Under the pieces are notes generated by a model that was not told the DNA's origin, searched no databases, and saw only the letters and a program-made list of their open reading frames with translations. Positions 36,294-39,561 of a stretch of DNA of 64,000 nucleotides are shown in pieces. The stretch comes from an uncultured Planctomycetaceae bacterium (GTDB lineage: Bacteria > Planctomycetota > Phycisphaerae > SM23-33). How positions within the stretch are numbered: position 1 is the stretch's first letter; every line of letters begins with the position of its first letter. Location of the stretch: positions 7,670 through 71,669 of the forward strand of contig CAYYMD010000005.1 of NCBI GenBank assembly GCA_964472875.1, read 5' to 3'. The position numbers and the translations under genes are program-made.

Positions 36294-37379
36294 TCAATCG
36301 ATGGGAAGTTGAGGTGGCCGCGACTTTTTATCGCTTCCAGACTCGGGCTTTGGCTTAGGTGGCTTTACGCCTTTACACTTATATTGCCACACTATGATAG
36401 TCCACTTGTCACGGGTGGTGGGCACCCACCCTGCTGCTAAAGAGTATTCGTCGCTAACGCGACGCGCACGGACATAGAGTTCAAAACTATCGGGCCAGAC
36501 GACAAATCGCACGTACCGCTTATCTTTGTCCGTATGCCGCAACACTCGTTGAAAAAGACTGTGCGGCATTTGGATTCGATTTATTGTTTCGCCGCCTCCG
36601 CGCTTACGGTTCAATACCACTTGTACCCCTCGCCAGTGTGGCTCGACGGTGTATCTAAAATCGTTCGTTCCCAGATTGTGGTTCTGGAAATACTCCGCAA
36701 GCACCTTGCAATCGACAGGGGCTGTTTTGTCCGACCGATTGGGAAAGCAATGTCGAACAATCGCACTGACGACCTTTTTGACGTTATCGTAACTGACATG
36801 ATACAGACGACCCTCCCGGCAAAGAAATAATACGGGCCTGGCGCCTTTCGGCGCCGGGCGGGGATTTGGAAGAGTCACGATTTTTGGTGGCGGCGCTTTG
36901 ACCTTCGCCACCTCAGCCAGCTGTGTCTGGATACGGTCCTCTTGCTGATCGAGCTTACCGATTTGCTCGGTGAGTTTATTGATTTCGTTCTTGCGTTGTG
37001 TCAGGAGTTTTTCAACCTTTTGTTTGAACTTGTCCGGCTCAGTGGGTTCAGATAGCTGCTTTTGCAGACCGGCGATGCGCTGCTGTGTCTCGTCGAGTCG
37101 GCGACGCAATTCAGGCAGATGCTTCTTTTTCTGGTTCCATTGACGAAGCAGTTGATTGATTTCTTGTTCCTGTTGATTGGCTTTCTTCTCGGCCAGCGCC
37201 AGCTGCCGTCTGCTGACTACCGGAATGTCTTGCTCCGCGCGTAAAACCCTCTTGACCGCATCAGCGACATTAAGTTGCGTAACCACCAGCAGAATAACCA
37301 GAATGCCGACAACGTTAGTCATCGTGTCAAGCAGTGAATCGAGACTCCCAATTTCGGTTTTTCGCCTGCGTCGCGACAT
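36294..37379 (-). CDS. Single-pass coiled-coil membrane protein with ExbD/TolR-like N-terminus and C-terminal domain (operon gene 3)
   Basis: 361 aa. A basic N-terminus and TM segment (MSRRRRKTEIGSLDSLLDTMTNVVGILVILLVVTQ) carry an Asp in the ExbD-like position. A heptad-rich segment of about 120 aa follows (QQEQEINQLLRQWNQKKKHLPELRRRLDETQQRIAGLQKQL). The compact C-terminal domain ends in a Lys/Pro-rich tail. Confidence 0.55.
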   Translation of the reverse strand: MSRRRRKTEIGSLDSLLDTMTNVVGILVILLVVTQLNVADAVKRVLRAEQDIPVVSRRQLALAEKKANQQEQEINQLLRQWNQKKKHLPELRRRLDETQQRIAGLQKQLSEPTEPDKFKQKVEKLLTQRKNEINKLTEQIGKLDQQEDRIQTQLAEVAKVKAPPPKIVTLPNPRPAPKGARPVLFLCREGRLYHVSYDNVKKVVSAIVRHCFPNRSDKTAPVDCKVLAEYFQNHNLGTNDFRYTVEPHWRGVQVVLNRKRGGGETINRIQMPHSLFQRVLRHTDKDKRYVRFVVWPDSFELYVRARRVSDEYSLAAGWVPTTRDKWTIIVWQYKCKGVKPPKPKPESGSDKKSRPPQLPID

Positions 37380-37382
37380 GAT

Positions 37383-38189
37383 TTATTTTCCTTCAAAATG
37401 AGACAGATCAATCTTCCCCTCCCCCAGAACGGGAAGTTTACCGACTTGGCATTTATATTTCCATGCCTGATTGCGCATCGGTCTAATCAATCCTATAGAA
37501 TTGGGGCGAACCAGCAGGACCGCAACGCCTTTGCGCCTCTTCGCCGTACGGGAGAACACTTTAGCCAGTTCGGAAGAGTTTCCTATATCTTTCTGGTGAA
37601 TACGTACCGGCGGATCGCTGCTGTGGATTATAACATGGGGGTTGTCGAGTTCTATAAAAGCCGGCTGCATATTAACCCCGGAGCCGCTGGCGCGTATGCT
37701 GACACGCGGTTTCCTCAAAGATTGCTTTTCCTCCAGTTGCTGTTTGAGTTGCTTAATTTTCTCCTGCTGTTTGTGATATTGCTGCTGAAATGTTTGGATT
37801 CTCAGTTTCAGTCTTTCGGCTTCTTCCAGGCGCTTGGCTACTTCGCCGCTTTGCCTTTTAATTCTTTTCAACCGAACCTGTAACTGCTCAAGTTGTTGGC
37901 GATTCTTATTTAACTGATCGTTCAGTTTTTGGGCTTCATCGATTCGTTTTTGCAGTTGAGCAATCTGGTCGCTACGCTCCTTGTCGGAGCGGACCAACTG
38001 CGCATATCGTTGGGCCCGCTTTTTTGCCTCGACCAGTTCTCGCTCCGCTTTGGCTACCGCCTGCGGGTCCAATTGCCCCAGGGCCATAGCCGTGATCATC
38101 AATGTCAGAGTGCCTATTACACACGCCAGGATGCTCAGGAACGGAAACAGGGAAACGATATTCGCATTTTTACGCTTTCGACGGGCCAT
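37383..38189 (-). CDS. Single-pass coiled-coil membrane protein, ExbD-like architecture without TM Asp (operon gene 2)
   Basis: 268 aa. A basic N-terminus and TM segment (MARRKRKNANIVSLFPFLSILACVIGTLTLMITAMAL) are followed by a coiled coil of about 110 aa (RIDEAQKLNDQLNKNRQQLEQLQVRLKRIKRQ). The C-terminal domain reads GVAVLLVRPNSIGLIRPMRNQAWKYKCQVGKLPV, which resembles the ExbD periplasmic domain. Confidence 0.5.
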   Translation of the reverse strand: MARRKRKNANIVSLFPFLSILACVIGTLTLMITAMALGQLDPQAVAKAERELVEAKKRAQRYAQLVRSDKERSDQIAQLQKRIDEAQKLNDQLNKNRQQLEQLQVRLKRIKRQSGEVAKRLEEAERLKLRIQTFQQQYHKQQEKIKQLKQQLEEKQSLRKPRVSIRASGSGVNMQPAFIELDNPHVIIHSSDPPVRIHQKDIGNSSELAKVFSRTAKRRKGVAVLLVRPNSIGLIRPMRNQAWKYKCQVGKLPVLGEGKIDLSHFEGK

Positions 38190-39561
38190 TACCTTTGTTT
38201 TTCTTCCTCAGAGCGCCCCAGTTGAATAAACCGCGCTTCCGCACCTCCACGACGACATGTTCATGCCCGAGTTTTTCCAGCACCCGGTTCAGCGATGCCA
38301 TCCCCTCTTCCAGGCCGGTGAAGCAGCGATGAATTCTATCCGTCGTTTCAGTCAGCGACTGACTTAATTCGGTGTGCGCAGACTTCGAGCGTTCGCTGAT
38401 GGTCTCCATATTCGCGGCTGCTTCCTGCCCGACAACCTCGGCTTGTTCATGTATCGTTTGGGCGATATGCTCCATCTGGGCGATTTGAGACTCATGAAGT
38501 TCGGTAACTTTTTCCTGCACTTGTCTGATTTCGGAGTAAACTTCCGGTGCAAGTTGCCCCGTGGCCGAGGCACCGCCACCACCGTCGTCCAGCCGTTTAA
38601 GCAGGTTTTCGTTGCAGTACTCATCGACCCAATTGAGCAGGTCGTCCTCGCTCTTTTGCAGTGCGTGGGAGGGTATGGCGATTATCAGACTCATCACCAG
38701 CGCCACAAGCGTGGTGTCGAATGCGATGCCGAGCCCGGTTGTTACAGTGCCGAGTTTCGCCTTGAGGTCTTCGATGTCGGCGCCGGAATCCAGTTCACCG
38801 CTGAATCCGCCAACCGCGGCGCTGATGCCGATTACCGTACCAATAAACCCCAGAATAGGAATCGCCCACGTGAAAACGCGCACAAGCGTGTAACTGGACT
38901 CAACGGCATTGGCGTCAATATCAGACTGACTGTTCATCAGCGAGGCAACCTCACCGTTATTTCGACGAGCCGTGAAATGCTCCAGGCCACGAAGTACACG
39001 GTTTATCATGAAACTTCCGGAAGCCCGCACGGGCAACTTTCTGACGTGAGAGATGAACTTCTCGGCGTTGTGAGCAGTTATGGTGTCGGCTATTATATTG
39101 GGCAGGACATCGAACAGCATTACGTCGCGATGTCGTCGATGACGCAGCCATTTAAGCACAAGTATCGCTACCGACCATCCGAATAGAAGAACCAGCACGA
39201 ACGGAACCCACCCGCGCCGCCAGAACAAGTCGTGGAAATAAGTTCCTTTAAAGGGCAGGATAACCACCATGAACGCTGCGGCGATTATCAAGCCAACTAT
39301 AAAACTTCGAAGCGGGCTTACATTAACGCCCGTGCCGCCGAGTTCCGCCACGGCTTTACTGGCTACCTTTTTTGAAGTCTTAGCGGATATTTTCTCCGAG
39401 GTTGTTTCCGCGGGCCTGGCCGTGGGAATCGTCGCTTTAGATTGACAAGGAATTATTACCGTATTCTTACAGTATGGACAACGTGCTTTTTTACCCCTTT
39501 TGTCCTCTTGTGCCCGAAGATCTTTGCCACAGTGTTCACATGTGAATTTAAAGTAATTCAT
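38170..39561 (-). CDS. Zinc-ribbon-MotA/TolQ/ExbB-family channel fusion with helical C-terminal tail (operon gene 1)
   Basis: 463 aa. The N-terminal CxxC...CxxC is [28 protein letters not shown]. Two TM segments and a soluble loop follow. The ExbB-like core is [22 protein letters not shown]...[22 protein letters not shown]. A Q/E-rich helical tail of about 150 aa completes it. It overlaps gene 2 by 20 nt. Confidence 0.75.
   Translation of the reverse strand: [463 protein letters not shown]

Follow-up and report, generated by a model that had tools for sequence, protein, structure and literature searches.

Introduction

Only a few kinds of machine convert a flow of ions into mechanical work, among them MotAB, ExbBD, TolQR, GldLM and ZorAB, and every new partner arrangement among 5:2 motors of this kind has revealed a new cellular process. 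Here, a set of three consecutive genes, g1, g2 and g3 (together, the triad), is described from the minus strand of a 64,000-nucleotide (nt) stretch of DNA, referred to throughout as the window, that belongs to an uncultured Planctomycetaceae bacterium (GTDB lineage Planctomycetota; Phycisphaerae; SM23-33; assembly GCA_964472875.1, contig CAYYMD010000005.1, positions 7,670 to 71,669). g1 encodes a channel protein of the MotA/ExbB family, g2 and g3 encode paralogous bitopic proteins of TolR fold, and the three are co-conserved across the Planctomycetota. It is highly probable that the three proteins form one complex of the MotA/ExbB type.

In gene logic, the closest described system is AglRQS of Myxococcus xanthus, for which an AlphaFold model predicts an AglR5:AglQ:AglS assembly, i.e. 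a heterodimeric axle inside a pentamer (PMC11761067). A zinc ribbon (ZnR) with a flexible linker behind it serves as a cytoplasmic switch or localisation module in two proteins, GltJ of Myxococcus and ZitP of Caulobacter (PMC11135422). A 2025 survey reported, in bacteria of the Planctomycetes-Verrucomicrobia-Chlamydiae (PVC) group, uncharacterised TolQ-like genes with heterologous TolR-like or Asp-bearing transpore-helix (TPH)-vWA pairs; TPH-vWA/TolR-like pairs were found in Planctomycetes, Verrucomicrobia and other phyla, and many 5:2-type systems were considered to be still undiscovered (PMC12204202). A phylogeny of MotAB homologues, also from 2025, lumps such proteins together as generic ion transporters of unknown function, and the words 'zinc' and 'coiled' were not found in it (PMC12505986). 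No description of the triad was found in the literature searched.

Results

g1 is a MotA/ExbB-family protein with a zinc ribbon and a helical tail

Profile hidden Markov models (HMMs) place g1 in the MotA/TolQ/ExbB proton channel family: Pfam MotA_ExbB (PF01618) matches amino acids (aa) 190-303 at 32.8 bits against a cutoff of 22.9, and the domain is shared by the g1 homologues. Hydropathy analysis gives four hydrophobic segments (aa 86-104, 118-136, 233-251 and 278-301) and, because the zinc ribbon is N-terminal and basic residues follow the second transmembrane (TM) helix, g1 is predicted to adopt a MotA-like topology with four TM helices and both ends in the cytoplasm. Across an alignment of 40 homologues G241, T242, D282, T283 and T284 are invariant, such that conserved Thr residues are present in each of the last two TM helices (T242 within GTV, T283/T284 within DTT). 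The invariant or nearly invariant stretches are the TM3 motif, the TM4 motif AFDTTLVAL and the segment directly after TM4; two regions differ among homologues in both length and sequence, namely the linker behind the ribbon and the central part of the tail. When aligned with the window's own ExbB paralogue, the TT of g1 TM4 falls on the TT of that protein. A parallel between the membrane core of g1 and the ExbB paralogues of the window had been drawn in a preliminary description of this DNA, and both the Pfam match and the TT-on-TT alignment bear it out.

The zinc ribbon has the spacing C8-x2-C11-x16-C28-x2-C31 and all four Cys are invariant in the same 40 homologues. The ribbon itself was thus recognised correctly in the preliminary description, although its spacer is 16 residues long and not 17. 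Profiles of RpoP/FmdB-type ribbons from Pfam and NCBIfam match it weakly. Sequence-profile searches of the PDB with the g1 and g2 families returned coiled-coil and apolipoprotein noise together with three weak leads: the GltJ/AgmX ZnR structure 7zok, matched by the g1 ribbon (E 0.025), ZorA (E 0.12) and GldL (E 0.3).

Behind TM4, the g1 tail runs from a conserved segment through a helical spacer of variable length to a conserved C-terminal module (L..LN.VL..LG..QVV, followed by RRGW.FGR). Heptad periodicity between aa 330 and 440 is significant, its level being reached in 0 of 500 shuffles, and the helical tail of about 150 aa that had been proposed corresponds to aa 302-463. ZorA models of the PADLOC library match g1 weakly and mainly over this tail (ZorA1 E 1e-7, ZorA2 E 2.8e-6).

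g2 and g3 are paralogues with a long predicted coiled coil and a TolR-like head

The products of g2 and g3 share a plan comprising a basic N-terminus, one TM helix, a significantly heptad-periodic segment of ~120 aa and a C-terminal domain (the head). They are paralogous over the TM helix, the coiled coil and the C-terminal domain alike (hhalign probability 98.6%, E 9e-16), which agrees with the common plan noted from the translations at the outset; the C-terminal domain of g3 carries an insertion of ~70 aa relative to g2. Across loci, the TM residue at the Asp position and the head anchor lie a median of 156 aa apart in g2; for g3 the median is 160 aa. Neither the short linker between TM helix and domain nor the 130-150 aa size of ExbD and TolR is found in these proteins, which have the ~120-aa heptad segment in that place and lengths of 268 and 361 aa.

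AlphaFold2 modelled both C-terminal domains with good confidence (pLDDT, the predicted local distance difference test, 87.7 for g2 and 91.9 for g3). TolR is the top structural match of the g2 head by two methods (Foldseek probability 1.00, E 7e-3), so a periplasmic domain of TolR/ExbD fold is recognised in g2, and g3 is tied in through paralogy. Conserved motifs of the g2 head are GGSG, P.F.EC, IFLVR.DA..TY and GKLPV.G.G.IDLS.F. Scans of g2 and g3 with Pfam, NCBIfam and PADLOC models gave coiled-coil noise only (e.g. SMC, Rad50, Mis12), and they contained no OmpA-type Pfam match in either protein, as expected from the earlier statement that an OmpA or peptidoglycan-binding domain is lacking.

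A membrane Asp and a Pro/Lys-rich tail distinguish g3

The TM motif of g3 is SLDSLLDTMTNVVGILVILL, in which Asp18 is invariant among 42 aligned homologues; the TM Asp is present in all g3 open reading frames (ORFs) across the 81 loci examined. By the precedent of ExbD D25, TolR D23 and MotB D32, Asp18 would be the ion-binding residue. In g2 the corresponding motif is SLFPFLSILACVIG, with Ser19 at the equivalent position, and the alignments therefore uphold the observation that in the window only the third gene has the Asp. Over the loci, this g2 position is Ser in 62, Asp in one subclade and Ala in one locus. An N-in TM helix with an Asp is accordingly found in g3 and in the g2 subclade, but not in the g2 of the window or of most lineages. 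The subclade, which is Pirellulaceae/Anammoximicrobium-like (loci L009, L013, L014, L015, L023 and L026), has the g2 motif FPFLDIMA, and both of its partners carry an Asp. Since FPFLDIM matches the ExbD-type motif P-x-[IL]-D, the g2 Ser looks like a secondary loss, and in most lineages one of the two partners alone may be able to carry the ion.

The coiled coil of g3 is followed by the nearly invariant sequence LPNPRPAP, and its head by a Pro/Lys-rich tail that measures 15-50 aa in homologues and is short in the window. The protein ends in a conserved acidic [DN]-x-[IV]-D-COOH (36297-36308 in the window); the termini counted across loci were NVID (20), DTID (9), DVID (8), DVVD (6) and others. 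The preliminary description had missed this tail and stated that there was no Pro-rich TonB/TolA-like partner. That statement no longer holds, given that a TonB-like Pro-rich element is present, fused to the ExbD-like g3. A peptide of this kind at the terminus suggests that a specific partner exists. The tetrapeptide is reminiscent of the EEVD-type ligands of TPR carboxylate clamps, a resemblance offered here as pure speculation. TPR genes accompany several Ton/Tol-like systems, e.g. at locus L082.

One protein of 757 aa (P0393), found in the exhaustive search described below, has a g3-type head and a VDVID terminus; the head is preceded by a TM helix and, in place of the coiled coil, by a periplasmic linker rich in Pro. 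Its N-terminal part, predicted to be cytoplasmic and kinase-like, gives a sub-threshold Pkinase match (24.9 bits against a cutoff of 31.7). P0393 is the only example and may be either a genuine fusion or an artefact of assembly; it suggests that the g3 head may be an autonomous periplasmic module.

The triad is conserved throughout the Planctomycetota

In a collection clustered at 90%, more than 1480 homologues of g1 (a lower bound), 846 of g3 and 301 of g2 were found. Where the source organism is named it is a planctomycete, and no entry assigns a specific function to g2 or g3 by name. Homologues of g1 lie at 38-47% identity, and the best non-self identity is ~47% for g1, 39% for g2 and 41% for g3. 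In a pattern-limited scan with one genome per species, a g3 relative was present in at least 248 genomes, which belong to Planctomycetia, Phycisphaerae and a few metagenome-assembled genomes (MAGs) labelled Lentisphaeria, Victivallales or Verrucomicrobiota. The g3 head alone has 538 representatives at 50% identity in an exhaustive phmmer search, nearly all of them 340-395 aa long with the head in the same position.

Triad completeness was measured with HMMs on stop-to-stop ORFs: g1, g2 and g3 are collinear on one strand in ~65 of the 81 loci. There is no conserved fourth gene, as no other family occurs in more than 9 of these 81 loci, a count that is too low to some degree because greedy ORF selection drops real genes in high-GC DNA. 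In Gimesia-like Planctomycetaceae g3 stands alone in its own conserved neighbourhood (L040, L043-L046, L065, L070 and L081) and g1 and g2 stay adjacent elsewhere, beside ROK, Ppx and PPK genes (L088, L089), which shows that all three genes are kept even when unlinked. Planctomycetales bacterium ZRK34 (CP050848.1; L002, L006) has two complete triads at distant positions and MAG GC162 has two g2 paralogues, suggesting lineage-specific duplication of the whole module.

The triad is core-like and vertically inherited. With hundreds of homologues per gene, at least 248 species genomes and mostly the same collinear arrangement, it does not fit the labels 'orphan' and 'accessory' that it had been given. 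Nor, in the loci examined, do the triads sit in Ton, Tol, flagellar or Zorya loci, an arrangement that would have assigned them to a known system.

The Gimesia synteny does not carry over to Planctopirus limnophila. In a TraDIS (sequencing of transposon insertion sites) table for that species, Plim_0746 (MotA/TolQ/ExbB) is listed as non-essential, and the nearby hypothetical genes Plim_0750 and Plim_0751 were scored essential; orthology of Plim_0746 to g1 and of the two hypothetical genes to the triad could not be verified (PMC10632474). Plim_0746, a gene restricted to Planctomycetes, has counterparts in 18 planctomycetes but in no more than 22 prokaryotes (PMC10632474).

Locus layout and other features of the window

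The three genes are tightly packed, with an overlap of 20 nt between g1 and g2 (38170-38189) and a gap of 3 nt between g2 and g3 (37380-37382). The ORF list reproduces this arrangement as first placed, and g1, g2 and g3 are translationally coupled. The non-coding stretch upstream of g1 (39562-39881) is 320 nt long. The TATAAT-like box reported earlier belongs to a promoter-like site within it (39644-39616, minus strand), which lies ~55-80 nt upstream of where g1 starts; the site matches the consensus, which is not evidence of function (Table 1).

A convergent gene at 33823-36108 (+) encodes a GH95 glycosidase by Pfam and ends 185 nt from g3; the upstream neighbour, past an ORF of 89 aa, is a sulfatase, also by Pfam. 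With these neighbours and no conserved fourth gene, the earlier remark that no TonB-dependent receptor lies nearby is confirmed. The 89-aa ORF (39882-40151, minus strand) has no Pfam match, and its former label of 'IS remnant' is left without a basis in Pfam. GC content across the triad is 0.49-0.55, similar to that of the flanking genes, in a window that ranges from 0.43 to 0.66, and the drop at 37-38 kb falls where the Q/K/E-rich coiled coils are encoded. Composition therefore gives no sign of foreign origin, and lower GC content, previously read as a mark of accessory status, loses that meaning. Accessory or horizontally acquired status was rejected on this ground and on that of phylum-wide conservation.

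Elsewhere in the window, positions 627-5814 hold a TonB2/Ttp-type cluster. A complete TonB2-type set had been described at 1-5.8 kb; its ExbD, two ExbB paralogues and DUF3450 protein are confirmed by Pfam, but no TonB gene was identified there.

Table 1. Positions of the triad, its parts and other features in the window
Feature	Residues	Position (nt)	Strand	Basis
g1	463 aa	38170-39561	-	ORF
g1 Cys4 zinc ribbon (C8, C11, C28, C31)	1-35	39457-39561	-	Cys conservation; weak profile matches
g1 MotA_ExbB core, including TM3 and TM4 motifs	190-303	38653-38994	-	Pfam; invariant residues
g1 tail, predicted cytoplasmic	302-463	38173-38658	-	Alignment, heptad periodicity
g2	268 aa	37383-38189	-	ORF
g2 TM helix	14-32			
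g2 coiled coil	~40-160			
g2 C-terminal TolR-like domain	161-268	37386-37709	-	Predicted fold; conserved motifs
g3	361 aa	36294-37379	-	ORF
g3 TM helix	16-34			
g3 Asp18 codon, candidate ion-binding residue	18	37326-37328	-	Conservation
g3 coiled coil, then LPNPRPAP and enlarged TolR-like domain	~45-165 (coiled coil)			
g3 Pro/Lys-rich tail and conserved C-terminal peptide, ...KPPKPKPESGSDKKSRPPQLPID		36297-36374	-	Alignment
Promoter-like TTTTCA-17-TATAAT with TG extension		39616-39644	-	Consensus scan and sequence
ExbD		627-1040	-	Pfam 77.6 bits
Short ExbB		1037-1498	-	Pfam
Long ExbB with coiled-coil N-terminal extension		1495-2832	-	Pfam
DUF3450 protein		2829-3692	-	Pfam
697-aa ORF	697 aa	3721-5814	-	Putative TonB-dependent receptor of the preliminary description

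Discussion

The reading favoured here is that the triad encodes an ion-driven motor of 5:1:1 type with a periplasmic, Ton/Tol-like output; assembly and direction of output taken together, it is given an even chance. By analogy with MotAB, ExbBD and TolQR, five g1 subunits would enclose one g2 and one g3 TM helix, and ion flow through g1 would act, against its Thr ring, on Asp18 of g3. With the Asp on g3 and a Ser on g2, the axle of most lineages would be chemically asymmetric. The coiled coils of g2 and g3 (~120 aa each and of near-equal length) would pair as a parallel heterodimeric stalk of ~16-20 nm, as estimated from segment length, and place the TolR-like head of g2/g3 deep in the periplasm, where the Pro/Lys tail and [DN]x[IV]D-COOH of g3 could contact a partner in the cell wall or outer membrane whose gene lies elsewhere. 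On the other side of the membrane, the zinc ribbons with their flexible linkers and the helical tails, five of each, may position or regulate the motor, or may be an output themselves. A periplasmic output is preferred because the tail and terminal peptide of g3 are conserved, and the function is most likely that of a Ton/Tol-like trans-envelope force transducer or an envelope-maintenance device, in which an ExbD-like axle would carry TonB-like reach.

A number of results weigh against this reading. We know of no experimentally characterised precedent for a motor with one Asp per axle, and the stalk lengths of g2 and g3 co-vary weakly (Spearman 0.40, phylogeny not controlled). In the fold search with the g3 head TolR did not rise above generic matches, and the fold matches of both proteins are modest, the TolR fold being a common alpha/beta sandwich. 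At the level of sequence, neither g2 nor g3 matches Pfam ExbD (PF02472) at E values up to 1, and a scan of 44 g2 homologues (E up to 10) did not list PF02472 among its 25 most-matched families. On this model the true ExbD of the window (627-1040) reaches 77.6 bits, and it also matches solved ExbD and TolR chains. Alignment of the g2 and g3 families to that single ExbD with hhalign was not significant. Against an ExbD/TolR profile of 10 sequences, drawn from the window ExbD, annotated plasmid ExbD genes and PDB alignments, g2 did no better than reversed-column controls (P ~0.2) and g3 with its coiled coil spliced out gave a marginal result (P 0.003, reversed control 0.2). In the latter alignment 'KvV.LPNPRPAP' of g3 lies on the post-TM 'v.v.LP' stretch of ExbD, which would marginally fit a coiled coil inserted between the TM helix and an ExbD-like domain. 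A jackhmmer search for extra ExbD genes among the fetched loci found none. Sequence therefore does not make g2 and g3 members of the ExbD family, a status they reach via fold, topology, the Asp and gene context only; of the ExbD likeness first proposed for them, topology, the TM Asp of g3 and the head fold of g2 stand, and family membership by sequence does not.

The same motor might deliver its output to the cytoplasm instead, which is considered rather unlikely. The head would then anchor to peptidoglycan, as in MotB and TolR, the g1 pentamer would rotate, and the ribbons and tails would act on a target such as the cell-polarity or budding machinery, comparable to MotA acting on FliG or to signalling by the ZorA tail. 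Such an output would account for the strong conservation of both g1 appendages, i.e. the invariant Cys4, the post-TM4 segment and the C-terminal module, and it would suit a heptad-periodic tail that weakly resembles those of ZorA and a ZnR-plus-linker that resembles GltJ and ZitP, both of which bind cytoplasmic polarity factors. TolR-fold domains are, moreover, thought to bind peptidoglycan when open (PMC4646322). However, the conserved Pro-rich tail and terminal peptide of g3 would be left unexplained, as would a long rigid stalk on a stator anchor, no conserved cytoplasmic partner gene is found nearby in the 81 loci, and the similarities to ZnR and ZorA fall below significance.

A further suggestion, that g2 and g3 are scaffold proteins of the PilN/PilO, GspL/M or FtsB/L type that merely stand beside a MotA/ExbB-like gene, is improbable. 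The architecture is the same (a short cytoplasmic N-terminus, a TM helix, a coiled coil and a small alpha/beta head, in paralogous pairs of heterodimer type), ExbD membership by sequence is absent, and Pfam PilO, FtsL_2 and DivIC match weakly (E 0.005-0.5). These matches, however, are at the level of coiled-coil noise, and neither profile nor fold searches gave a significant placement of g2 or g3 with PilN/PilO, or with ZorB, two of the families in which the preliminary description would have seen its motor disproved. The invariant TM Asp of g3 and the ExbD-like PxxD motif of the g2 subclade speak against scaffold proteins, as do the coupling and co-conservation of g2 and g3 with a MotA/ExbB gene and, over the 81 loci, the absence of conserved pilus, type II secretion system (T2SS) or divisome genes nearby.

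It is very improbable that the triad is a Zorya-like anti-phage module, with g1 as a sensor motor like ZorA whose tail signals and with g2/g3 in the place of ZorB: a long helical tail is a hallmark of ZorA and the PADLOC ZorA models are the best defence-library matches of g1, but those matches are weak and dominated by the tail, NCBIfam ZorA scores are far under their cutoffs (14.3 against 100 and 7.6 against 190), g2 and g3 have no OmpA-type peptidoglycan-binding domain match, no ZorC, ZorD, ZorE-type effector or other conserved neighbour occurs in the 81 loci, and phylum-wide occurrence, retention when split and variable, housekeeping-type neighbours are atypical for defence islands. A flagellar stator of MotAB/PomAB type was rejected for want of an OmpA-type match in g2/g3 and of flagellar neighbours in the loci examined. 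A canonical Ton system was rejected as no conserved fourth gene accompanies the triad in the 81 loci and its neighbours in the window are the GH95 glycosidase and the sulfatase, with no TonB gene or TonB-dependent receptor at the locus. Canonical Tol-Pal was likewise set aside, with tolA, tolB, pal and cpoB not adjacent to triad loci; a TolR with TolA close by, which would have argued against a distinct motor from the start, is hence not what the loci examined contain.

The envelope biology of the phylum and its FtsZ-less division are still unexplained, and two of the three triad proteins are without a family assignment. A broader proposal, put forward tentatively, is that the triad represents a distinct, phylum-wide class of ion-driven 5:2-type motor. 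Its axle would be intrinsically asymmetric, with the ion-binding Asp on one subunit and not on the other, and would extend as a coiled-coil shaft of ~20 nm through the enlarged periplasm of planctomycetes to a TonB-like tail of its own. Such a motor would power an envelope process specific to the Planctomycetota, such as the handling of the outer membrane while cells divide without FtsZ or bud, or the uptake of macromolecules into the periplasm, and it would replace or complement Tol-Pal. An asymmetric single-Asp axle, a coiled-coil shaft, a built-in Pro-rich tail and a zinc ribbon on the channel would make the system mechanistically unusual, although recent surveys have anticipated its general kind. 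A single-Asp axle would be a natural test of models that assume two equivalent, alternating Asp residues, and a coiled coil and a Pro-rich tail fused to an ExbD-like subunit suggest an alternative design for a trans-envelope force transducer.

Comparison with known systems

ExbB-ExbD-TonB and the triad have in common a channel of the MotA/ExbB family, a partner that combines an N-in TM Asp with a head of TolR/ExbD fold, and a Pro/Lys-rich periplasmic segment. The triad locus differs in having neither a separate TonB gene nor a TonB-dependent receptor, and its Pro-rich segment is on the ExbD-like g3. Two non-identical partners are present, with a coiled coil of ~120 aa between TM helix and head, and Pfam ExbD is unmatched in them; g1, unlike ExbB, is predicted to have four TM helices with the N-terminus inside. 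With TolQ-TolR-TolA the triad shares trans-envelope reach, TolR being the structure that the g2 head matches best and TolA providing a long helical element that spans the periplasm. In the triad, however, the helical stalk is on the TolR-like proteins themselves, tolA, tolB, pal and cpoB are missing from the vicinity, and the zinc ribbon and tail of g1 are without a Tol counterpart.

ZorA-ZorB resembles the triad in having a MotA-like protein that ends in a long helical tail, as reflected in the weak ZorA HMM matches to g1, and differs from it in that the triad has two partner genes, no effectors at the locus, no OmpA-type match and a housekeeping-like conservation across the phylum. The likeness to GldL-GldM is conceptual and concerns a long rigid periplasmic shaft, formed by the axle dimer, that could transmit rotation. 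GldL has two TM helices, and there is no detectable homology (the GldL lead is confined to the tail region); the periplasmic domains of GldM are unrelated. The TPH-vWA systems include a TPR gene and proteins with vWA domains, whereas the triad combines a coiled coil with TolR-like heads and has neither vWA nor TPR genes beside it.

AglRQS shares with the triad its gene content of one MotA/TolQ-like gene and two different TolR-like genes. AglQ and AglS have been likened to TolR in a text that mentions no long coiled-coil stalk (PMC11761067). They act via separate partners such as GltG and GltJ, whereas no Glt-type genes are conserved near the triad and its g2 is without the Asp in most lineages. 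The ZnR-plus-linker of g1 appears to follow the same plan as that of GltJ and ZitP, which is a resemblance and not a demonstrated relationship. The Agl-Glt machine has its ZnR-plus-linker cytoplasmic module in GltJ, whereas in the triad the ZnR is fused to the g1 channel itself.

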